Of a DNA stretch of 51,350 nucleotides, positions 11,394-48,858 are shown one piece after another. Position 1 is the first letter of the stretch, and each line of letters opens with the position of its first letter. The DNA is taken from the IMG/VR virus record IMGVR_UViG_2690315831_000003. The stretch is one strand, 5' to 3'. The notes under the pieces are model-generated. The model was not told where the DNA came from. It did no database searches and saw nothing but the letters and a program-made list of their open reading frames with translations. Source of the DNA: a virus (Duplodnaviria > Heunggongvirae > Uroviricota > Caudoviricetes). The position numbers were made by a program, and so were the translations under genes.

Positions 11394-11603
11394 AAACGGT
11401 TTGCGGGGAAAGAAGAGTTAAGTAGAATTGCTGCGGGTGCTTGAGGCTGTCTGCCTCGGGCATGCCGCCGTAAGGCAGACAGAGAAAAGCCCCAGTTAAC
11501 ATTACGCGTCTTGCAGGACGCTTAACATTAATCTGAGGCCCAATCTATGCTTCACAAACGTAGGTTAGCCTCTTACGTGCCGAAAGGCAAGGAGAAGCAG
11601 GCT

Positions 11604-11759
11604 ATGAAGCAGCAAAAGGCGATGTTAATCGCCCTGATCGTCATCTGTATTACCGTTGTTGTGACGGCACTGGTAACGAGGAAAGACCTCTGCGAGGTAC
11701 GAATCCGAACCGGCCAGACGGAGGTCGCTGTCTTCGTAGACTACGAATCTGAGAAGTAA
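11604..11759 (+). CDS. hokD: Hok/Gef-family type I toxin (HokD/RelF-like)
   Basis: 51-aa MKQQKAMLIALIVICITVVVTALVTRKDLCEVRIRTGQTEVAVFVDYESEK nearly matches recalled HokD/RelF; structured 5' leader with 10-bp hairpin and 3' fold-back hairpin GCGAGGGAgaaaTCCCTCGC. Confidence 0.85.
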   Translation: MKQQKAMLIALIVICITVVVTALVTRKDLCEVRIRTGQTEVAVFVDYESEK

Positions 11760-15772: not shown

Positions 15773-16831
15773 ATGTTTAATACTGTAAAAATATCCAGTT
15801 GTGAGTTAATCAACGCTGACTGCCTGGAATTTATCCGGTCGTTACCCGAAAATTCTGTTGACCTGATAGTCACGGACCCGCCGTACTTTAAAGTGAAGCC
15901 TGAGGGCTGGGATAACCAGTGGAAGGGCGACGATGACTACCTGAAGTGGCTGGACCTGTGTCTGGCGCAGTTCTGGCGGGTGCTGAAACCTGCCGGAAGT
16001 CTTTACCTGTTCTGTGGCCATCGCCTGGCATCTGACATTGAAATCATGATGCGTGAACGCTTCAGTGTGCTGAACCATATTATCTGGGCAAAGCCGTCCG
16101 GACGCTGGAACGGGTGCAACAAGGAAAGCCTGCGGGCGTATTTCCCCGCCACAGAGCGCATTCTGTTCGCGGAACATTATCAGGGGCCGTATCGCCCGAA
16201 AGATGCCGGGTATGAGGCGAAGGGCAGGGCACTGAAACAGCATGTGATGGCCCCGCTGATTTCTTACTTTCGTGATGCGCGTGCTGCCCTGGGGATAACG
16301 GCAAAACAGATAGTGGATGCCACAGGAAAGAAAAACATGGTGTCGCACTGGTTCAGTGCCAGTCAGTGGCAGCTACCGAACGAAAGCGATTATCTGAAAT
16401 TACAGGCGCTGTTTGCCCGGGTGGCAGAAGAGAAGCATCAGCGGGGGGAACTGGAGAAGCCCCACCACCAGCTGCTGGAGACGTATACTTCACTGAACCG
16501 GCAGTATGCGGAACTGCAGAGTGAATATAAGCATCTGCGGCGGTATTTTGGCGTGACGGCGCAGGTGCCGTACACGGATGTGTGGACGCATAAACCGGTG
16601 CAGTACTATCCCGGGAAACATCCGTGCGAAAAACCGGCAGAAATGCTGCAGCAGATAATCAGCGCGAGCAGTCGTCCGGGTGACCTGGTTGCAGATTTTT
16701 TCATGGGGTCGGGTTCGACAGTCAAAGCCGCGATGGCGCTGGGGCGGCGTGCTACAGGCGTTGAGCTGGAGACTGAACGTTTTGAGCAGACGGTCAGGGA
16801 AGTTCAGGATTTAGTCAGTCAGAACGGATGA
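15773..16831 (+). CDS. Orphan DNA methyltransferase (N6-adenine or N4-cytosine, beta-class)
   Basis: DPPY motif near N-terminus (VTDPPYF) and FxGxG motif near C-terminus (FFMGSGST); no adjacent restriction endonuclease gene. Confidence 0.85.
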   Translation: MFNTVKISSCELINADCLEFIRSLPENSVDLIVTDPPYFKVKPEGWDNQWKGDDDYLKWLDLCLAQFWRVLKPAGSLYLFCGHRLASDIEIMMRERFSVLNHIIWAKPSGRWNGCNKESLRAYFPATERILFAEHYQGPYRPKDAGYEAKGRALKQHVMAPLISYFRDARAALGITAKQIVDATGKKNMVSHWFSASQWQLPNESDYLKLQALFARVAEEKHQRGELEKPHHQLLETYTSLNRQYAELQSEYKHLRRYFGVTAQVPYTDVWTHKPVQYYPGKHPCEKPAEMLQQIISASSRPGDLVADFFMGSGSTVKAAMALGRRATGVELETERFEQTVREVQDLVSQNG

Positions 16832-16871: not shown

Positions 16872-16947
16872 GGCCCTTTAGCTCAGTGGTGAGAGCGAGC
16901 GACTCATAATCGCCAGGTCGCTGGTTCAAATCCAGCAAGGGCCACCA
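16872..16947 (+). tRNA. tRNA with CAU anticodon (Ile2/ileX-like or Met)
   Basis: Cloverleaf folded by hand: acceptor GGCCCTT/AAGGGCC, D-arm GCTC-AGTGGTGA-GAGC, anticodon loop CTCATAA, T-loop TTCAAAT, 3' CCA. Confidence 0.85.
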
Positions 16948-16956
16948 TATCACATA

Positions 16957-17033
16957 CCGCCATTAGCTCATCGGGATAGAGCGCCAGCCTTCGAAGCTGG
17001 CTGCGCGGGGTTCGAGTCCTCGATGGCGGTCCA
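16957..17033 (+). tRNA. tRNA-Arg (UCG anticodon)
   Basis: Acceptor CCGCCAT/ATGGCGG, anticodon stem CCAGC/GCTGG with loop CTTCGAA, T-loop TTCGAGT, 3' CCA; unusual C1-G72. Confidence 0.75.
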
Positions 17034-17311: not shown

Positions 17312-17740
17312 ATGTATTGCCGTGCTGTACCGGTTCTTGTTTTGATATTAGCCAGTCTGACAACTGGCTGCACAAAAGATGTATCGACAAATAATTATGA
17401 TGCTTCTCTGTATCACTCAGATAAATTAATAAAGTCGCAAAATTTGAGCTCATCGGAACGTACCCCTGATGCCAGTGAAGAAATCCGGCAGTATGCCATT
17501 CAGGTCAGGAAAGCCATAGAAGAACAGTTAAAGGATGCGAGTAAGTATTCAGGAAAAGAGTGTTCACTGAGAATGTATATGGCCCCGAATGGTCTTCTGC
17601 TACAGGTTAAAAGAGAAAGCGGTGATCCCGATTTATGTCGTGAAGCGATGAATGCAGTAAAGAATGCTGATATACCATCACCACCGTCTTCAGGAGTATA
17701 TAAAGCATTTAGAAATGGCGTGCTGGATTTTAAACTCTGA
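17312..17740 (+). CDS. Lipoprotein with TolA C-terminal (domain III)-like domain
   Basis: Signal peptide plus lipobox LTTGC; C-terminal SKYSGKECSLRMYMAPNGLLLQVKRESGDPDLCREAMNAVKNADIPSPPSSGVYKAFRNGVLDFKL parallels recalled E. coli TolA III; AT-rich context. Confidence 0.7.
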   Translation: MYCRAVPVLVLILASLTTGCTKDVSTNNYDASLYHSDKLIKSQNLSSSERTPDASEEIRQYAIQVRKAIEEQLKDASKYSGKECSLRMYMAPNGLLLQVKRESGDPDLCREAMNAVKNADIPSPPSSGVYKAFRNGVLDFKL

Positions 17741-17877
17741 CAGGGGGAGAAGATTTTCTCCTGTCCTGATGATTTTGGGGCGCTGGAAAGATATTGTGCT
17801 GTGAAGTGTTAAATCCCTCACAATTCAGTAAGTTGACAGTTGCCTGTCAGACTGAGCATTTGTTAAAAAAATTTCGC

Positions 17878-18053
17878 ATGGTGAATCCCCCTGTGCGGAG
17901 GGGCGACTGGTGAACGGTATGATCTCTTTGATGATCGTAAGCGAGAATACGCGGGTTTGGTGTCACCGGGCTGAACTCACCGGGAGGCACCCGGCACCAT
18001 GCTCATGGTGATACAGAAATGCGGCTTCAGCCCCTCTCCGGAGGGGCTTTCTT
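17878..18053 (+). ncRNA. Putative sRNA, repeat unit A
   Basis: Promoter TTGCCT (17840-17845) / TAAAAA (17864-17869); terminator GCCCCTCTCCGGAGGGGC + T-run at 18030-18052; ORFs across the unit not conserved. Confidence 0.4.
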
Positions 18054-18060
18054 ATGGACA

Positions 18061-18435: not shown

Positions 18436-19161
18436 ATGGATGTTGCCTGCTCTGTGGTCCTGATTCGCTATCCGATAGATATTTTTCTTGAAAAAGAAAA
18501 AGTTTCACTCGATGCCGGAAGTGTTATGCTTGTTGCCAGAAATATAAGAGGGCTTTTCTGTGCTTATGCCGACAGAGTGAAAATGGCAGATATAAGTAAC
18601 AGCGTCGTCAATCAGTATCTGGAAAGGGAGTGTGAACTGACGGAGTATACACCGACAAAAATGCCTCTTTATTTGATGTCTGATATTTACAATACGGAAC
18701 TGGCGGAGGCTTTAATAACCCGGCATAGTGAATCCAGTGATACTTTGAAGGATTTCTCTGTTATAACCGCATTTTCATGTATCTCCTTATTTGCAACAGA
18801 CAGACGTCTGCCATTATTTTTGTCCGGTGCTGTAAATAATATCAGCTGTAAAGTAAGGGCTATAATTCAGACCGACATATCGGCAGGCTGGATGCTTGGT
18901 GTGATTGCATTACAATTGCATATGAGCGAAAGCTTGTTGAAGCGAAAACTTAAGGATGAAGGTTATAGCTTTAGTCGGTTGTTGCTGGAGGAGCGAATGC
19001 GTGTTGCTGTTAATCTTGTATGTTTCCAGCGAGAGTGTGGACAAGCGATAGCGGAAAAATGTGGTTACTCAAGTAAGTCCTACTTCATTTCTGTATTTCA
19101 CCAGTATTATGGTGCACCACCTGAGAGCTATGCATATTTGCAGAAAGCAGACGTTATCTGA
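18436..19161 (+). CDS. AraC/XylS-family transcriptional regulator (cargo)
   Basis: 241 aa; C-terminal dual-HTH AraC signature region; AT-rich locus. Confidence 0.7.
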   Translation: MDVACSVVLIRYPIDIFLEKEKVSLDAGSVMLVARNIRGLFCAYADRVKMADISNSVVNQYLERECELTEYTPTKMPLYLMSDIYNTELAEALITRHSESSDTLKDFSVITAFSCISLFATDRRLPLFLSGAVNNISCKVRAIIQTDISAGWMLGVIALQLHMSESLLKRKLKDEGYSFSRLLLEERMRVAVNLVCFQRECGQAIAEKCGYSSKSYFISVFHQYYGAPPESYAYLQKADVI

Positions 19162-19529: not shown

Positions 19530-19852
19530 AACATATCCTGTATATTTATGTTGTTACATACAGGCGCTTTTAGTATCTGCCGCACGGCAGTTGTACTTCA
19601 GAATAAGATGCTTTTGTGACTGGTGGTGTTGTATCTGGGGTTAGCCAGTAGGCAGGTTCAGAGAGTCCGGTGGTAATTATGTGTATGCAGTGGTTGTTGC
19701 TGTACCGTGGGCAAGTTCTGGAACTGGCTTCGTCCATTGTAGATGATTGTTAGCTGGATATCAGTTACCTCATGGAAATGTTAAATGACTCACAATTCGG
19801 TTGATGGGCTATTGTCTGATCGATGGAAGTCTTGTAAAAACGAGCCAGCATA

Positions 19853-20012
19853 GTGAATCCCCCTGTGCGGAGGGGCGTCTGACATGGTCTCCATAGCGAT
19901 GGTCACAATACGCAGATTCAGTAGTCAGGCTGAATCTACCGGGAGGCACCCGGCACTATGCTGCTTATGGTGTATACATAGCGATCGGCCCCTCTCCGGA
20001 GGGGCTTTTTTT
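19853..20012 (+). ncRNA. Putative sRNA, repeat unit B
   Basis: Same conserved 5' and 3' blocks, divergent middle; terminator 19988-20012. Confidence 0.4.
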
Positions 20013-20111
20013 GTGCGGGAAAAGGCTGTGTTGTTAAGTGTTAAATTCCTCACAGTTCAGATGGTTGATGCTTGCCTGTCTGAGGGGGAGTTGTTAAAAA
20101 AGTTCTGCATG

Positions 20112-20282
20112 GTGAATCCCCCTGTGCGGAGGGGCGACTGGTGTGATTTGCATCTTTTCTGTTGTAGGCAATGCAAACGCGGGTTCAGGGACACCAGACT
20201 GGACTCACCGGGAGGCACCCGGCACCATGTTCATGATGATACAGATACGCAGTGTCAGCCCCTCTCCTGAGGGGCTTTTTTA
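20112..20282 (+). ncRNA. Putative sRNA, repeat unit C
   Basis: Near-identical to unit A over the first ~35 nt and the 3' hairpins; terminator 20258-20282. Confidence 0.4.
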
Positions 20283-20381
20283 TGCAGGAAAAACGCTGTG
20301 TTGTGAAATGTTAAATTCCTCACAGTTCAGATGGTTGATGCTTGCCTGTCTTACGGGGAGTTGTTAAAAAAGTTCTGCATG

Positions 20382-20544
20382 GTGAATCCCCCTGAGCGGA
20401 GGGGCATATCAGCGCAGGTGTTTCTACTCTATCCTTTCTGTGCGGGTTCAGGTGCTGATACTGAACTCACCGGGAGGCACCCGGCACCATGCAGTATACA
20501 GAGATTAGGCATACATCCAGGCTCCTCATCGCAGGAGCCTTTTT
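20382..20544 (+). ncRNA. Putative sRNA, repeat unit D
   Basis: Conserved 5' box and internal hairpin; different terminator GGCTCCTcatcgcAGGAGCC + T5. Confidence 0.35.
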
Positions 20545-20550
20545 ACATGT

Positions 20551-41893: not shown

Positions 41894-42227
41894 GATTAAG
41901 ACCCTTCACTGGTGTCCCCGGGAAGGGATGCAGGTGACGGAGAAACCGTCGGTGGTGACGGTGAAGTTTGGCGACGGTTATCAGCAGCGTCGTCCGGCAG
42001 GACTGAATGCGCAACTGAAGACCTTTCAGGTGGTTTTTCGGGTGACAACGGATGCTGAGCGGGAGGCACTGTCCGCGTTTCTGTCATGGCATGGCGGTTA
42101 CCGGGCTTTTTTGTGGAAGCCCCCGAAACATAACCGGACGGTCAGGGTGGTGTGCCGGGAGTGGAGTATTACGGATAACGCCCGGTACAGTGATTTCAGT
42201 TGCACGATAGAGCAGGTGGTGAACTGA
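41886..42227 (+). CDS. Minor tail protein M-like
   Basis: 113 aa, coupled to the tape-measure stop. Confidence 0.75.
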   Translation: MDEIKTLHWCPREGMQVTEKPSVVTVKFGDGYQQRRPAGLNAQLKTFQVVFRVTTDAEREALSAFLSWHGGYRAFLWKPPKHNRTVRVVCREWSITDNARYSDFSCTIEQVVN

Positions 42228-42925
42228 TGCAGGATATTCACGAAGCAAGCCTGAACGAGTCGGTTAAATCAGAGCAGTCACCGCGGGTGGTGCTCTGGGA
42301 AATCGACCTGACGGTGCAGGGCGGTGAGCGGTATTTTTTCTGCAATGAGCTGAATGAAAAAGGGGAGCCGGTGACCTGGCAGGGGCGTGAATATCAGGCG
42401 TACCCGATTGAGGGGAGTAGCTTTGAGATGAACGGAAAGGGCAGCAGTGCCCGCCCGTCGCTGACAGTGTCCAATCTTTTCGGCCTTGTCACCGGGATGG
42501 CGGAGGATTTGCAGAGCCTGGTGGGGGCCACGGTGGTCCGTCGCCGGGTGTATGCGCGTTTTCTGGATGCGGTGAACTTTGTGGCGGGGAATCCGGAGGC
42601 CGACCCGGAGCAGGAGCTGACGGACCGGTGGGTGGTGGAGCAGATGTCAGCGCTGACGGCCATGACGGCCTCGTTTGTGCTGGCGACACCGACGGAGACG
42701 GACGGTGCGCTGTTTCCCGGTCGCATCATGCTGGCGAACACCTGTATGTGGGATTACCGGGGCGATGAATGCGGGTATAACGGTCCGGCAGTGGCGGATG
42801 AGTTCGACAACCCCACCACGGATATCCGGAAGGACAGATGCAGTAAATGCATGCGCGGGTGTGAGATGCGCGGCATGGTGGCTAATTTCGGCGGTTTCCT
42901 TTCCATTAATAAACTTTCGCAGTAA
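42227..42925 (+). CDS. Minor tail protein L-like
   Basis: ATG 42227 overlapping the M stop; C-terminal Cys cluster. Confidence 0.75.
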   Translation: MQDIHEASLNESVKSEQSPRVVLWEIDLTVQGGERYFFCNELNEKGEPVTWQGREYQAYPIEGSSFEMNGKGSSARPSLTVSNLFGLVTGMAEDLQSLVGATVVRRRVYARFLDAVNFVAGNPEADPEQELTDRWVVEQMSALTAMTASFVLATPTETDGALFPGRIMLANTCMWDYRGDECGYNGPAVADEFDNPTTDIRKDRCSKCMRGCEMRGMVANFGGFLSINKLSQ

Positions 42926-42935
42926 ATCCCGTTTT

Positions 42936-43679
42936 ATGACACAGACTGAATCAGCGATTCTGGCGCATGCCCGGCGGTGTGCGCCAGCGGAGTCGTGCGG
43001 CTTCGTGATAAGCACCCCGGAGGGCGAACGGTACCAGTCCTGCGTGAATATCTCCGCAGAGCCGGAGGCGTACTTTCGTATTGCGCCGGAAGACTGGCTG
43101 CAGGCACAGATGCAGGGGGAGATTGTGGCGCTGGTCCACAGTCATCCCGGTGGTCTGCCCTGGCTGAGCGAGGCGGACCGGCGGCTGCAGATAAAGAGTG
43201 CCCTGCCCTGGTGGCTGGTCTGTCGGGGTGAAATTCACCGCTTCCGCTGTGTGCCGCACCTGACCGGACGGCGCTTTGAACACGGTGTGACGGACTGTTA
43301 CACCCTGTTCCGGGATGCATACCATCTGGCGGGGATAACGCTGCCGGATTTTGTGCGTGAGGATGACTGGTGGCGCAACGGCCAGAACCTGTACCTGGAC
43401 AACCTGGCGGAAAACGGCTTTTGCCGGGTGTCTCCATCCTGTGCACAGGCAGGCGATATTCTGCTGTGCTGCTTTGGTTCATCGGTGCCGAATCATGCCG
43501 CCATTTACTGTGGCAACGGTGACCTGCTTCACCATATACCTGAACAACTGAGTAAACGGGAGAGGTATTCTGAAAAATGGCAACGACGAACGCATTCTGT
43601 CTGGCGTCACCGCCACTGGTCCGCATCTGCCTTCACGGGGATTTACAACGATTTGGTCGCCGCATCAGCCTGTATGTGA
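42936..43679 (+). CDS. Tail assembly protein K-like (JAB/MPN plus NlpC/P60-like)
   Basis: ATG 42936; HSHPGG motif consistent with JAMM/MPN; Cys/His of papain-like fold. Confidence 0.75.
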   Translation: MTQTESAILAHARRCAPAESCGFVISTPEGERYQSCVNISAEPEAYFRIAPEDWLQAQMQGEIVALVHSHPGGLPWLSEADRRLQIKSALPWWLVCRGEIHRFRCVPHLTGRRFEHGVTDCYTLFRDAYHLAGITLPDFVREDDWWRNGQNLYLDNLAENGFCRVSPSCAQAGDILLCCFGSSVPNHAAIYCGNGDLLHHIPEQLSKRERYSEKWQRRTHSVWRHRHWSASAFTGIYNDLVAASACM

Positions 43680-44257
43680 ACACGGCAGCGGAGGCCATCC
43701 GTGCCCTGTCGCAGCAGGTGCCGGGATTCCGCTGTCAGATGAACGAAGGCTGGTACCAGATACGTATTGCCGGTGAGGATACCGCGCCGGAGGCGGTGTA
43801 TGCCCGTCTTCATGAACCGCTGAGCGGGAGAGCCGTGATACATATTGTACCGAGGCTGGCAGGGGCCGGGGGAAATGGTGTTTTTCAGGTGGTGCTGGGG
43901 GCTGCAGCCATCGTGGGCTCTTTCTTCACCGCCGGTGCAACGATGGCGTTGTGGGGCGCAGCCCTGAGTGCCGGAGGGCTGACTGCCACCACGATGCTGT
44001 TCTCACTGGGTGCCAGCATGATACTGGGTGGTGTGGCCCAGATGCTGGCCCCGAAGGCAAAGACGCCGGAGTACAAAAGCACGGATAACGGCAGACAGAA
44101 CACGTATTTTTCGTCACTGGACAACATGATTGCTCAGGGGAATCCGGTGCCGGTGCCTTACGGTGAAATGCTGGTTGGTTCACGACGGATATCCCAGGAC
44201 ATCAGCACCCGTGATGAGGGCGGTGACGGGAAAGTGGTGGTTATCGGGCGGGGATGA
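43577..44257 (+). CDS. Tail assembly protein I-like
   Basis: 226 aa; N-terminus and Gly/Ala-rich hydrophobic C-half closely follow recalled lambda I; overlaps K 3' end as in lambda. Confidence 0.8.
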   Translation: MATTNAFCLASPPLVRICLHGDLQRFGRRISLYVNTAAEAIRALSQQVPGFRCQMNEGWYQIRIAGEDTAPEAVYARLHEPLSGRAVIHIVPRLAGAGGNGVFQVVLGAAAIVGSFFTAGATMALWGAALSAGGLTATTMLFSLGASMILGGVAQMLAPKAKTPEYKSTDNGRQNTYFSSLDNMIAQGNPVPVPYGEMLVGSRRISQDISTRDEGGDGKVVVIGRG

Positions 44258-44261
44258 AAAA

Positions 44262-45128
44262 TAAAAAAAATCCCGCAGTGCTCTGTAGCTGCGGGAAGAG
44301 ATACGAAGATTAACTTTAAGGAATTTTTCATTATTCTGGCAGATGAACTGTAACGCAGCGTGATTATGAGCACTACAGTCAGTGTGCGGAAATGTGAATA
44401 AACTCAGAATTTTTATTCACGGGAAGGGAGGGGCCGGATATCGGTGGCAGAGGACAGAAGGCATCATGCGGGTTCAGGGGATAAAAAAATCCCGCAGTAC
44501 TCCGTGCTGCGGGAAGAGAACGATGTTGACTAACCTGAAGGCGTTTTATTTTTATTGACCCGAAGAAACTGTAACCTGCCGGAATGCACTCTGCCACGGA
44601 GAATGACGGAAAATGTGAAGAAAATCAGAGTTTTTATTTATCCCGTACATTCGTCTCTGGCGACAGAGTGGCGTCAGTAATGTCCGTGATACTGAGGGGG
44701 GAATTAAAAAATCTCCCGTAATACACCTGGATATTGACGGGAGAAACGAATAGTCACCTTAAGGAGTAGTTTTGATTATTGCCTGTAATCAGCGGGTGAA
44801 TTGTAACGTATGGTGATTATGAGTGCCACAGGTAATTTGCAGAAATGTGAATAAATTCAGAATTTTTATTCACAGGAAGGGGCTGCGGGATATCGGTGGC
44901 AGAGGACAGAAAATATCAGGCCGGGTTTAAGGGATAAAAAAATCCCGCAGAGTCAGCGGAGCTGCGGGAGAGAACGATGAAGATTAACGTTATGGAGTTA
45001 TTTTTCAGGCATCAAAAAAGTAACGCAGCGTCATTATTGCGGCTACAGGCAATTTGCAGAAATGTGAAGAATTTCAGAAATTTTATTCCGTCATGACACA
45101 GGCACCCTCCGGGGTGCCTGTTGTTTTT
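44262..45128. repeat. About 860-bp non-coding insert between I and J with four degenerate ~215-bp tandem units
   Basis: Each unit has an A-run plus hairpin (CCCGCAG..CTGCGGG; minus-strand intrinsic terminator), a TGTAACG..GTGATTATGAG block and an inverted repeat GTGAATAAA..TTTATTCAC; no ORF. Confidence 0.7.
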
Positions 45129-45171
45129 GGGCATAAACAGATTCAGACATCAGACAGGAGAGGGGGACAGA

Positions 45172-48100
45172 GTGGGTAAAGGGGGCGGCAAGGGGCACAC
45201 ACCGCGTGAGGCGAAGGACAATCTCAAGTCAACGCAGATGATGAGCGTGATTGATGCCATCGGTGAGGGACCGGTGGAAGGTCCGGTGAAGGGACTGCAG
45301 AGTATTCTGGTGAACAAAACCCCGCTGACGGACACGGACGGTAATCCCGTGATACACGGTGTGACCGCCGTCTGGCGTGCCGGGGAGCAGGAGCAGACAC
45401 CGCCGGAAGGCTTTGAGTCCTCCGGGGCAGAAACCGCACTGGGCGTGGAGGTGACGAAGGCAAAGCCGGTGACGCGCACCATCAAGTCAGCGAACATTGA
45501 CCGTCTGCGGGTCACCTTCGGGGTGCAGTCACTGGTGGAGACCAGCTCAAAGGGTGACCGTAATCCCTCTTCTGTCCGGCTGCTGATTCAGCTTGAGCGT
45601 AACGGTAACTGGGTGACGGAGAAGGATGTCACCATTAACGGCAAGACCACCTCGCAGTACCTGACGTCGGTGATTCTGAATAATCTCCCTGAGCGCCCCT
45701 TTAACATCCGGATGGTCAGGGTGACGGCGGACAGTACCACGGACCAGCTGCAGAACAGAACGCTGTGGTCGTCATACACCGAAATCATCGATGTGAAACA
45801 GTGCTACCCGAACACGGCCATTGTGGGGCTGCAGGTGGATGCGGAGCAGTTCGGTGGCCAGCAGATGGTGGTGAACTACCATATCCGCGGCCGCATCATT
45901 CAGGTGCCGTCAAACTATGACCCGGAAAAACGCACCTACAGCGGTATCTGGGACGGGAGTCTGAAACCGGCATACAGCAATAACCCGGCCTGGTGCCTGT
46001 GGGACATGCTGACCCACCCGCGCTACGGCATGGGAAAACGCCTGGGGGCGGCGGATGTGGACAAGTGGGCGCTGTATGCCATCGGGCAGTACTGCGACCA
46101 GACGGTCCCGGATGGTTTCGGGGGCACAGAGCCGCGGATGACTTTCAATGCGTACCTGTCACAGCAGCGTAAGGTGTGGGATGTCCTGGGGGATTTTTGC
46201 TCGGCGATGCGCTGTATGCCGGTATGGAACGGCCAGACGCTGACGTTCGTTCAGGACCGTCCGTCGGATGTGGTGTGGCCGTACACCAACAGCGATGTGG
46301 TGGTGGATGATAACGGCGTGGGGTTCCGCTACAGCTTCAGTGCCCTGAAGGACCGGCACACGGCGGTGGAGGTGAATTACACTGACCCGCAGAACGGCTG
46401 GCAGACCTCCACTGAACTGGTGGAAGACCCGGACGCCATCCTGCGCTACGGGCGCAACCTGCTGAAGATGGATGCGTTCGGCTGTACCAGCCGCGGTCAG
46501 GCCCACCGTGCCGGACTGTGGGTGATAAAGACCGAACTGCTGGAAACGCAGACGGTGGATTTCACGCTCGGGTCACAGGGGCTGCGGCACACGCCCGGTG
46601 ACATCATTGAAATCTGTGATAACGACTATGCCGGGACCCTGACCGGCGGACGCATCCTGTCCATCGATGCCGCCAGCCGCACACTGACGCTGGACCGAGA
46701 GGTGACACTGCCGGAAGCAGGGGCATCGACGGTGAACCTGATTAACGGCAGCGGTAAGCCGGTGCGCGTGGACATCACTGCACACCCCGCCCCGGACCGG
46801 ATACAGGTCAGCGTCCTGCCTGATGGCGTGGAGACATACGGTGTGTGGGGACTCTCCCTGCCGTCACTGCGTCGTCGCCTGTTCCGCTGTGTTTCCATCC
46901 GGGAAAACACGGACGGCACCTTTGCCATCACGGCGGTGCAGCATGTGCCGGAAAAAGAAGCCATTGTGGATAACGGGGCCCGCTTTGAGCCGATGTCCGG
47001 CTCACTGAACAGCGTCATCCCGCCGGCAGTGCAGCACCTCACGGTGGAGGTGAGTGCCTCAGACGGCCAGTATCTGGCGCTGGCGAAATGGGACACGCCG
47101 CGGGTGGTGAAGGGGGTGCGCTTCAGTCTGCGCCTGACCAGCGGAAACGGTGAAAACAGCCGCCTGGTGACCAGCGCCATCACGGCGGACACGGAGCACC
47201 GTTTCAGTGGCCTGCCGCTCGGGGAATACACCCTGACGGTCAGGGCGATAAACAGCTACGGCCAGCAGGGCGAACCTGCCACCACCACATTCCGGATTAA
47301 TGCACCGGCGGCACCGGCCAGCATTGAACTGACGCCGGGCTATTTTCAGATAACGGTGGTCCCGCATCCTGCGGTGTATGACCCGACGGTACAGTATGAA
47401 TTCTGGTTCTCAGAAAAACGCATCACGGACACGGCACAGGTGGAAACCTCTGCCCGTTATCTGGGTACCGGCAGCCAGTGGAGCGTTTCCGGCCCGCACA
47501 TTAAGCCGGGGAAGGATTTCTGGTTTTATGTGCGCAGCGTCAACCTGGTGGGGAAATCTGCGTTTGTGGAGGCCAGCGGGCAGGCCAGCAATGATGGTGA
47601 AGGGTATCTGGAAATTTTCCGTGGGCTGATAGATGAGGCGCTGCTGGGGAAGGCACTGAAAGAGCGTATTGATGCGTCAGCCCTGCGTACTGAGGTCACG
47701 CAACTGGAAGAAGACATCCGCCAGCGACTGGAGACGGATGTTGCGGAAGTGACCCGAAAAATCGGGGAGGCGGAAAACAGCCTCACGCAGCTGGTTGCGA
47801 AAAAGAATGAGGACCAGACGCTGGCCATCGCGCAGGTGAGTCAGCAGGTGGACCGGGTGAGCAGTGAAATCACACAGACAGTCAGCCAGAGCACGGAGGA
47901 AAACGCCAGGCAGATAGCGCAGGTCCGCCAGTACGTGGATGACAAAGGGAGTGAAATCACCTCGACCACGGATAAAAAGCTGGAAGACCAGAGCGCGACC
48001 ATACAGCAGATACAGCAGGTCCAGTCAGACACGAATGATGAGCTGGCAGCGCTGTACATGCTGAAGGTGCAGAAAACGAAAAACGGCATTCCGTATGTTG

Positions 48101-48858
48101 CCGGTATTGGTGCGGGGATTGAGGATGCTGATGGCCAGACGCTGAGCAATATTCTGCTGCAGGCGGACCGTATCGCGATGATTACCCCGGAGAACGGCAA
48201 CACCACGCCGCTGTTTGTGGCACAGGGGAATCAGCTGTTCATGAACGACGTGTTCCTGAAGCGACTGTTTGCGGTGAGTATCACGTCATCCGGCAATCCC
48301 CCGACGTTCTCCCTGACGCCGGAGGGCAGGCTGACGGCCCGCAATGCTGACATCAGCGGACATATCAGTGCGAACTCGGGCACGCTGAATAATGTCGTGA
48401 TAGCGGAGAACTGCACGATAAATGGCACGCTGAAAGCGGAGAACATTATTGGTGATCTGGTGAAATGTGCCGGGGTGGCTTTTCCGGTGGATGGTAGTCA
48501 CCTTGCGAACGGTACACGAACGCTGACGGTGTATGACGATCACAGCTTTGACCGGCAGATTATAATCCCGCCGATAATCTATGTCGGGTCAAAACAGGAA
48601 TCCCGCACCAGTAATGACATCTGGACAGAGTGCTTCCTGCATGTTGATCAGAACGGACGCCGGATTTATTCAGGCAGGTCAGTGGCAGAGCCGGGAATTT
48701 TCAGCGGGATCATCGATATGCCAGCTGGCGGTGGTCATATCACCCTGAGTTTTACCGTGAGCTCACGGCGTCAGAATGACAGTTGGGGCAGTTCACGAAT
48801 CAGTAACCTTCAGGCGATAGTGGTGAAGAAAAACAGCGCGGGGATCAGTATCCGCTGA
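45172..48858 (+). CDS. J: Host specificity / central tail fibre protein J-like
   Basis: GTG 45172 after AGGAGAGGGGG; N-terminus [22 protein letters not shown] matches recalled lambda J start; about 1229 aa. Confidence 0.85.

Follow-up and report, generated by a model that had tools for sequence, protein, structure and literature searches.

Four diverged units resembling PasB/EcOnc22-24 small RNA genes at the I-J tail gene junction of a lambdoid prophage

Prophage-encoded small RNAs (sRNAs) such as AgvB, AsxR, StxS and HnrS are emerging as regulators of virulence and physiology in enterohaemorrhagic (EHEC) and enteropathogenic (EPEC) Escherichia coli. Two described sRNAs are close relatives of the element analysed here, a non-coding array between tail genes I and J in a 51,350-nucleotide stretch of Caudoviricetes DNA (IMG/VR record IMGVR_UViG_2690315831_000003; the whole stretch is referred to below as the window). 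Crosslinking and cDNA analysis of Hfq (Hfq-CRAC) yielded the homologous peaks EcOnc22, EcOnc23 and EcOnc24 in Sp15, Sp14 and Sp11, three prophages of E. coli O157:H7 Sakai (Tree et al. 2014, PMC4104026), and EcOnc22 gave a Northern band of ~85 nt that was destabilised in an hfq deletion (PMC4104026 Table S2). For EcOnc22/23/24, an RNase E-CLASH study (crosslinking, ligation and sequencing of hybrids; Waters et al. 2017, PMC5286369) tabulates chimeric reads, and a 2021 review lists the target of these RNAs as unknown (PMC7873438). PasB, from prophage PP6 of EPEC E2348/69, is an 83-nt, Northern-verified and Hfq-dependent RNA (Pearl Mizrahi et al. 2021, PMC8550237). Its level was higher in the non-activating condition (lysogeny broth, LB) than in glucose-containing Dulbecco's modified Eagle medium (DMEM), its partners in RNA interaction by ligation and sequencing (RIL-seq) include ler, perB, bfpB, bfpI, ftsZ, galE and rplX, and no EHEC homologue is given for it in the table of that study (PMC8550237). 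A 2026 preprint on the Pas sRNAs, which searched bacterial genomes by BLAST with a word size of 28, places PasB lowest in diversity among the Pas sRNAs, with typically a single variant in each genome, and does not mention EcOnc (Zhu, Shabalina & Storz, 10.64898/2026.05.13.724894).

The I-J gap of the window (44258-45171, 914 bp) contains four diverged head-to-tail units of ~196-230 bp, all on the minus strand and within 44258-45131. We consider it likely that they form a set of four autonomous sRNA genes, or "sRNA morons", that belong to the PasB/EcOnc22-24 family and are read in the direction opposite to the late operon. Homologues of the units have been detected as RNA in uninduced cells, are bound and stabilised by Hfq, and have been ligated in vivo to host or virulence mRNAs (PMC4104026, PMC5286369, PMC8550237). 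The sRNA gene family is already known from single copies; a stack of four versions in one prophage is not described, and no paper on an sRNA located between the genes for tail assembly and host specificity turned up in a literature search.

Detection and anatomy of the four units

A profile was built from the four unit cores and searched across the whole window. It matched exactly four times, at 44264-44421, 44483-44641, 44707-44874 and 44936-45090, with E-values of 1e-39 to 1e-44, while the next best match in the 51 kb had E=0.8; the four degenerate repeat units reported in a first-pass annotation of this DNA are thus confirmed, well beyond what chance would give. Pairwise identity among the units is 56-75%. 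Tandem Repeats Finder detected no repeat in the gap because units of such low identity lie below its detection range, and a repeat search recovered families spaced 217-232 and 452-454 bp.

Read on the minus strand, each unit presents in order an upstream box, a -10 element, the motif (C/G)GUUAC, an A-rich tract, a C/U-rich stretch of the form CC-NNNNN-GUUAAUCUUC-NNNNNN, a GC hairpin and a run of six to eight U residues. A U run follows (C/G)GUUAC in unit 4 and in most alleles elsewhere, whereas units 1-3 have no clean run. The box, TCTGA-N6-TCACATTT, is exact and occurs once per unit (four matches against 0.00 expected from shuffles). The -10 element lies ~25 nt after it. Units 1 and 3 share CATAAT at this place, whereas unit 4 has AATAAT and unit 2 has GTGCAT. 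When folded alone, each predicted RNA (~91-104 nt) has a largely open body that ends in a hairpin and U-run. The general sequence features of an Hfq-dependent sRNA are present, namely a Rho-independent terminator with poly-U, a U/C-rich stretch, an A-rich tract of the AAN type and an unpaired region available for base pairing.

The first-pass annotation had assigned to every unit a hairpin CCCGCAG(N10)CTGCGGG, the motif TGTAACG..GTGATTATGAG with the inverted repeat GTGAATAAA-N9-TTTATTCAC, and a CATAAT or AATAAT -10 element. The hairpin stands for units 1, 2 and 4, where N is 10, 9 and 11, and is replaced in unit 3 by CTCCCGT...ACGGGAG. The palindrome and the TGTAACG motif, which are the plus-strand view of the box and -10 region, are intact in units 1 and 3 and not in the others; the proposed -10 sequences were found in units 1, 3 and 4, that of unit 2 being degenerate. 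The box itself, which is the best conserved feature, had not been singled out.

Individual units were assigned to classes by clustering the 3' 100 nt of all units compared in this work at 75% identity. Unit 1 is predicted to encode a class 7 RNA of ~94 nt (44263-44356, minus strand; body with AAUAAUGAAAAAUUCCUUAAAGUUAAUCUUCGUAUCUCUU; nhmmer 146 bits, with fold), its 5' end being placed 7 nt after the -10 element. Its terminator, CCCGCAG-N10-CUGCGGG followed by U8, spans 44263-44295, so that the U-run ends 6 nt past the stop codon of gene I. The promoter region of unit 1 (44363-44408, minus strand), which was aligned with the TTCACA-N16-TATAAT promoter of PasB-type alleles, comprises the box TCTGAGTTTATTCACATTT at 44390-44408, a weak -35 element TCCGCA and the -10 CATAAT at 44363-44368. 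For unit 2 a class 5 RNA of ~95 nt is predicted (44483-44577, minus strand; body with AAUAAAAAUAAAACGCCUUCAGGUUAGUCAACAUCGUUCUCUU; nhmmer 140 bits, with fold) that ends in CCCGCAG-N9-CUGCGGG and U7 (44483-44513); its promoter region (44584-44629, minus strand) has the box at 44611-44629 and GTGCAT at the -10 position (44584-44589).

The predicted RNA of unit 3 is longer, ~104 nt, and belongs to class 1 (44706-44809, minus strand; body with CAAUAAUCAAAACUACUCCUUAAGGUGACUAUUCGUUU; nhmmer 128 bits; fold -20.9 kcal/mol). It ends in a different terminator with a 13-bp stem, UCUCCCGU.AAUAU/GUAUUACGGGAGA plus U6 (44706-44743), of a type common to classes 1-3 in other loci. Within its promoter region (44816-44861, minus strand) the box is at 44843-44861 and CATAAT at 44816-44821, and a promoter scan proposed an overlapping alternative, GTGGCA-N18-TACAAT. 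Unit 4, closest to J, is predicted to encode a class 9 RNA of ~91 nt (44936-45026, minus strand), the orthologue of EcOnc22/23/24, with the terminator CCCGCAG-N11-CUGCGGG and U7 at 44936-44968 and a fold z-score of -2.1. Its promoter region (45033-45078, minus strand), with the box TCTGAAATTCTTCACATTT at 45060-45078 and AATAAT at 45033-45038, ends ~90 nt before J.

That the region is instead a degenerate coding-gene remnant, or a set of small-protein genes, seems highly improbable. Open reading frames (ORFs) of 30-72 codons do occur on both strands, and each unit has an AAGGAG-like motif on the plus strand, though this is the complement of the C/U-rich sRNA body. For six gap ORFs of 39-72 aa, including the four longest, searches of Pfam and PHROG returned nothing better than E=0.1, the ORFs are not conserved from unit to unit, and the units differ by indels whose lengths are not multiples of three. 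At the nine related E. coli chromosomal loci inspected, the I-J gap is empty of RefSeq annotation. In these ORFs there is no sign of the remnant of a known gene that the first-pass annotation had asked about.

Relationship to EcOnc22-24, PasB and other small RNAs

After correction of the published EcOnc coordinates, which refer to an older Sakai version (offset +135 bp at this locus, calibrated on a CLASH read and cross-checked on HnrS), the three Sakai peaks each map to a gap of 240 bp that separates the tail assembly gene from the host specificity gene, on the strand opposite the tail genes. The 91-nt RNA predicted for unit 4 is identical to Sakai EcOnc22/23/24 at 89 of 91 positions. The CLASH sRNA halves GCCTGAAAAATAACTCCATAACGTTAATCTTC and ACTCCATAACGTTAATCTTCATCGTTCTCTCCCGCAGC are found exactly on the minus strand of the window, at 44979-45010 and 44961-44998 respectively, and the EcOnc22-yjbJ chimera pairs through the first of two variable patches in the RNA body (CCAUAACGUU with AACGUUAUGG). 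When the Sakai CLASH reads were examined for the other sequence classes, reads of class 9 alone turned up. The I-J gap, antisense orientation, promoter box and terminator of EcOnc22-24 are as in the window units; Sakai, however, carries one unit in each of three prophages, whereas the window carries four different units in one.

PasB was mapped to NC_011601 1466343-1466261, which places it in the I-J gap in antisense orientation, and the probe used for its Northern blot corresponds to the terminator of the unit. Its identity to units 1-4 is 81%, 74%, 74% and 89% over aligned positions, and all four units are joined by one profile at 128-146 bits. Gap, orientation and architecture are shared with the window units, from which PasB differs in belonging to class 11 and in its near-consensus TTCACA-N16-TATAAT promoter. 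On these alignments PasB and EcOnc22-24 belong to one family, although the two names have apparently not been brought together before. A BLAST word size of 28 would miss classes that are 56-75% identical, and therefore arrays of the four-unit type. In the small sample compared here, about 12 classes and 62 distinct units make the family far more diverse than that survey reported, and its units can be stacked, to a maximum of four per prophage, with different putative pairing patches. In Rfam no match reached the gathering score between 44100 and 45300, with chance-level matches only at E up to 10, and the PasB/EcOnc22-24 family is absent from Rfam 15. Annotation pipelines leave these gaps empty.

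OmrA/OmrB, PrrF1/PrrF2 and Qrr1-5, which the 2026 Pas preprint also cites, are Hfq-dependent paralogues that have a scaffold in common but differ in part of their pairing regions; OmrA/B and PrrF1/2 are genome-adjacent. Those are core-genome genes, usually two in tandem, whereas the window array has four members, lies inside a phage structural operon and varies in number between prophages. The AgvB/AsxR "anti-sRNA" family (Rfam RF02702, RF02703) is likewise prophage-encoded and Hfq-bound and combines a conserved scaffold with a variable pairing region at a conserved moron site of lambdoid prophages, but that site is downstream of PR', and the RNAs are 51-60 nt long and of other sequence. Phage morons (Juhala et al. 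2000), among them the antisense sodC gene of the I-J site, are autonomous promoter-gene-terminator units inserted between two genes of an operon and missing from relatives such as lambda; here the cargo is RNA rather than protein and is iterated four times. The 64-bp I-J gaps of lambda and lambda-like loci contain no unit, and related loci have one to four units or sodC with a truncated unit.

HnrS (EcOnc10-12, PMC13502914) is also a prophage Hfq sRNA with several copies per genome, but it occupies the gap between the lysis genes and terminase, with unrelated sequence and one copy per separate prophage. As an identity for the units it (a 66-nt RNA with CUUCUACCCAAUCAGUAC) was ruled out by locus and sequence. 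The published sequences of PasA and PasD1/D2 do not match the units either; PasC lies in a different prophage (PP5).

Predicted expression and mode of action

In the favoured explanation each unit would comprise a sigma-70-type promoter (box, weak -35, and CATAAT or AATAAT as -10), an RNA of ~85-104 nt and an intrinsic terminator. The terminators consist of a 7-13-bp GC hairpin and U6-8, and sRNAs that depend on Hfq and base-pair in trans are typically built in this way. The RNAs would be produced during lysogeny, at a time of late-operon silence, would bind Hfq via the U-tail and A-rich tract, and would pair with host and virulence mRNAs via the C/U-rich body. Units 1, 3 and 4 would then be expressed like their homologues and act in trans through different patches. 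The four short minus-strand RNAs foreseen in the first-pass annotation gain support from EcOnc22-24 and PasB, those of units 1-3 being predicted. The two variable patches of the RNA body, five nucleotides after CC and 6-8 nt before the terminator, have an entropy of 1.0-1.8 bits and stand between conserved flanks. The four window units carry four different combinations of them; the array thus most likely widens the target range and does not simply raise dosage.

Several observations weigh against this explanation. The evidence for expression comes from published homologues, and units 1-3 are predictions. The -35 elements of the window units are weak (3/6 match), and a generic promoter scan passed no CATAAT or AATAAT promoter, its sole match being the overlapping alternative in unit 3. 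The -10 position of unit 2 is degenerate (TATCAT is present in the related class 6), and expression of this unit is doubtful because GTGCAT matches TATAAT at just two of six positions; judged from its promoter, unit 2 may be weak or silent. Structure z-scores are modest (-0.6 to -2.1), as expected with unstructured bodies, and add no support. Starts placed 7 nt after the -10 element predict RNAs longer than those measured (91 against ~85 nt for EcOnc22, 98 against 83 nt for PasB), the 5' end being uncertain. The CLASH trans partners of EcOnc22-24, yjbJ and ECs5349, are backed by only one or two reads, and no regulated target is validated for the family. An RNAduplex comparison of the four RNA bodies with 119 translation-initiation regions of the window returned none clearly above shuffled RNAs, with long loop-rich duplexes dominating the energies, so that it speaks neither for nor against targets inside the prophage.

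The discrepancy in length bears on the placement of the box. There are two candidate start sites ~15 nt apart, of which the downstream one would fit the length of PasB better, and the box is centred at about -44.5 or about -59.5 depending on which is real. The consensus site of the cAMP receptor protein (CRP) is TGTGA-N6-TCACA, and TCTGA-N6-TCACATTT matches it at nine of ten core bases. From this resemblance cAMP-CRP may act through the box; this is a lead only, which the higher level of PasB in LB than in DMEM fits. The shared promoter box offers a handle on the signal that drives the sRNAs.

A different role for the same RNAs would be control in cis, in which the late polycistronic mRNA is affected at the I-J junction by the RNAs, or by their convergent transcription, so that the expression of J is set relative to the upstream tail genes. 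This could proceed through long perfect duplexes for RNase III or through collision with late transcription, more units giving a stronger effect. Being encoded opposite the I-J spacer, the units necessarily show full complementarity to that part of the late transcript, and they are found at the same junction in nearly all related prophages. In addition, the C/U-rich 3' body (CUCUCC) could, by inspection, pair with the GGAGAG Shine-Dalgarno sequence of J. We nevertheless regard a cis-antisense function as unlikely. The homologues were detected in uninduced cultures, in which the late operon is off, and are Hfq-bound and chimeric with host mRNAs. The predicted RNAs overlap no coding sequence, neither that of I nor that of J, and within the late mRNA their complementarity is confined to the non-coding spacer, whereas cis-antisense RNA of the lambda OOP type overlaps coding sequence. 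The site also accepts an unrelated antisense gene, sodC, and thus behaves like a moron site that tolerates various inserts, not like a point dedicated to control, and lambda works with a 64-bp gap and zero units. A cis role and a trans role could coexist.

Between the units and J lies a terminator-like hairpin on the plus strand, ACAGGCACCC-tccg-GGGTGCCTGT followed by TTGTTTTT (45098-45131), whose conservation speaks for a cis function and which might belong to one. The hairpin and T-run that the first-pass annotation placed just before J were located by the terminator scan at 45098-45121. It is present in a single copy, outside the repeated unit and ~40 nt before J, and is kept in nearly all related loci, including L037, L039 and L064. 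One stem pair shows a compensatory change from C-G to U-A in the L039 class, with U-G intermediates elsewhere. At loci with ~350-bp gaps (L026, L027, L035) a different plus-strand hairpin and T-run stand in the same pre-J place. In the J leader that follows (45131-45171, plus strand), CAGACAT occurs once in the window and is iterated two to three times in the relatives L033 and L128 (CAGACATCAGACATCAGACA).

Copy number, classes and spread of the units

Two samples of related loci were compared, an unbiased junction sample anchored on protein I (80 IMG/VR and 34 GTDB loci) and an exact-pattern IMG/VR scan with the promoter box (120 loci, 51 of them without any unit). In the first, lambda and lambda-like phages have a 64-bp gap and zero units, and the large majority of loci have a gap of ~244-290 bp with one unit. 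Gaps of ~350-480 bp hold one unit plus extra sequence or two units, those of ~690-720 bp three units, and those of 914-918 bp four. In the second, 63 loci have one unit, three have two, two have three and one has four, with none above four. The variable copy number anticipated by the first-pass annotation is therefore borne out, with zero to four units at the junctions compared. Its premise that I and J are normally adjacent is true of lambda; the norm in this prophage lineage is a ~240-bp gap with one unit, not zero.

Another class of gap, 861-894 bp long, contains a minus-strand Cu,Zn superoxide dismutase gene (sodC) followed by a truncated unit with RNA body and terminator. At L018 (3574-4434) the gap holds sodC (Pfam Sod_Cu, E=4e-32) and a truncated unit that has no promoter; gaps of this type were also seen at L015, L023, L029, L042-L044, L049-L051, L055, L073, L081 and L120. 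Transcription of sodC may thus stop at the terminator of the truncated unit, or an sRNA may be derived from the 3' end of its transcript. The presence of sodC at the same junction indicates that I-J is a general site for antisense morons.

About 12 classes were distinguished among the 62 distinct units of the sample. From the I side to the J side, the window and L129 have the order [7][5][1][9], L124 has [7][5][9] and L128 has [5][9]. Other combinations are [9][1] at L009, [9][6][2] at L126 and L012, [12][6][2] at L014 and [12][1] at L011, L013 and L127. Single-unit loci carry class 11 (PasB type), 6, 9 (EcOnc22 type), 4, 10, 8, 12 or 3. Since the classes recur at other loci, the extra units are old distinct alleles and not fresh duplicates.

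Conservation of the terminator was assessed by direct comparison of stem and loop variation in the 62 distinct units. The standard terminator is present in 55 of them, and both stem arms are unchanged in 54 of these 55; the loop takes 19 forms of 9-16 nt, and 13 variants occur among the 12-nt segments that precede the stem. A T-run of at least six T follows in 54 of the 55. This pattern is a sign of selection. Across the family the upstream box is the best conserved block, with the -10 element and CGTTA next, and TTCACA-N16-TATAAT is present in many alleles, PasB included.

The extra units might also be read as by-products of prophage recombination that are slowly decaying, unit 4, the J-proximal EcOnc22 orthologue, being the one that works. 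Arrays are rare, at ~9% of unit-bearing loci (6/69, the remainder being the single-unit loci), and unit 2 has lost its -10 element. A decayed unit with a shortened hairpin and an interrupted T-run exists at L077, and poly-lysogenic Shiga toxin-producing E. coli (STEC) genomes, with up to nine loci each (median three), give ample chance for unequal exchange. On the other hand, terminators are intact and the box is exact in all four window units, and CATAAT is retained in units 1 and 3. The array is found at 98-99.5% identity in ~79 genomes, which differ in serotype and source. Other arrays contain the classes of units 1-3 as well, namely L124 and L128 as above and, for class 1, L009, L011, L013 and L127, and the neighbouring classes 8, 6 and 3 are found as the sole unit of a locus. 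On balance a single functional unit beside three relics has little probability.

The L077 unit (IMG/VR 2690316227_000010), the only one at its locus, has a loop of 2 nt, the stem CCCGCAA and the T-run TTGTTTT, and indicates that units can be lost by decay. As to gain, the presence of up to nine unit loci in one STEC genome provides the opportunity for unequal recombination, and the units were most likely stacked by unequal homologous exchange between co-resident lambdoid prophages at the conserved box or terminator. Beyond four autonomous sRNA genes in one prophage, the I-J junction of lambdoid prophages of the Shiga toxin (Stx) type could conceivably be a dedicated, recombination-driven cassette site that stacks one to four sibling Hfq-dependent sRNAs for combinatorial and horizontally exchangeable reprogramming of different sets of host and virulence mRNAs, a proposal that we put forward only tentatively. 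About a dozen classes would then share one scaffold and one CRP-like box and each bring a different short specificity patch, and because of the shared box all units would respond to the same signal. The locus offers a natural system for the divergence of sibling sRNAs and the exchange of regulatory RNA cassettes by phages.

At least 80% of a 1001-bp array query was found in 79 of 5426 complete E. coli genomes, at 98-99.5% identity, and a near-complete unit 3 in 73 of the 5426. The array-bearing genomes are from human, bovine, food and wildlife isolates, with O178:H19, O91:H21, O91 and O22:H8 among the named matches; array-carrying strains include O178:H19 2012C-4431, O91:H21 FWSEC0008 and O22:H8 RM10809-3. 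In the closest genome the same array lies in an Stx1a prophage, whereas the window has no stx at the corresponding locus, which indicates that the array moves together with the tail module. Assemblies labelled Streptomyces, Bacillota, Pseudomonas, Bradyrhizobium and others also contain I-J sequences of lambda or lambdoid type (L089-L104, L111-L115, L117-L120). These GTDB matches look like contamination by phage lambda or E. coli, many being low-coverage contigs and some ~48 kb long.

Flanking tail genes and other elements of the window

Gene I, on the plus strand, is listed as an ORF at 43577-44257 with its TGA stop at 44255-44257; RefSeq homologues, which carry a tail assembly protein annotation, begin at ~43676. 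Its product matches Pfam Lambda_tail_I over 43676-44254 (E=8e-08), and tail protein L lies upstream at 42200-42922 (Pfam). Gene J, encoding the tail tip/host specificity protein, is intact at 45172-48858 (plus strand, 1228 aa), with a full domain set of FNIII-A_GpJ, Phage-tail_3, Ig_J and Ig_GpJ_C (Pfam, 45172-48855). Its start codon is the GTG at 45172, not 45173. A Hok/Gef gene directly follows J in a related genome.

Elsewhere in the window, Rfam STnc100 was matched four times on the plus strand, at 17847-18059, 19819-20014, 20078-20287 and 20349-20550 (119-172 bits). Three of these copies stand head-to-tail within 730 bp and form a second tandem sRNA-like array in the same prophage. STnc100 has been related to PasD (10.64898/2026.05.13.724894). 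An ORF for an AraC-family regulator (18436-19161, plus strand; Pfam HTH_18 and HTH_AraC) lies between STnc100 copies, in the place of stx2AB in related Stx phages, and no stx gene was seen at this locus. Upstream are tRNA genes at 16872-16944 and 16957-17030, with an ORF containing a TolA C-terminal domain just after them (17312-17740, plus strand; E=6e-23), and a 352-aa ORF (15773-16831) that aligns with DNA annotated as DNA methylase in related Stx2 phages. Finally, the early region may contain a module of the hok/sok type, to judge from a match to the Rfam sok antitoxin RNA (11435-11609, plus strand; 118 bits).

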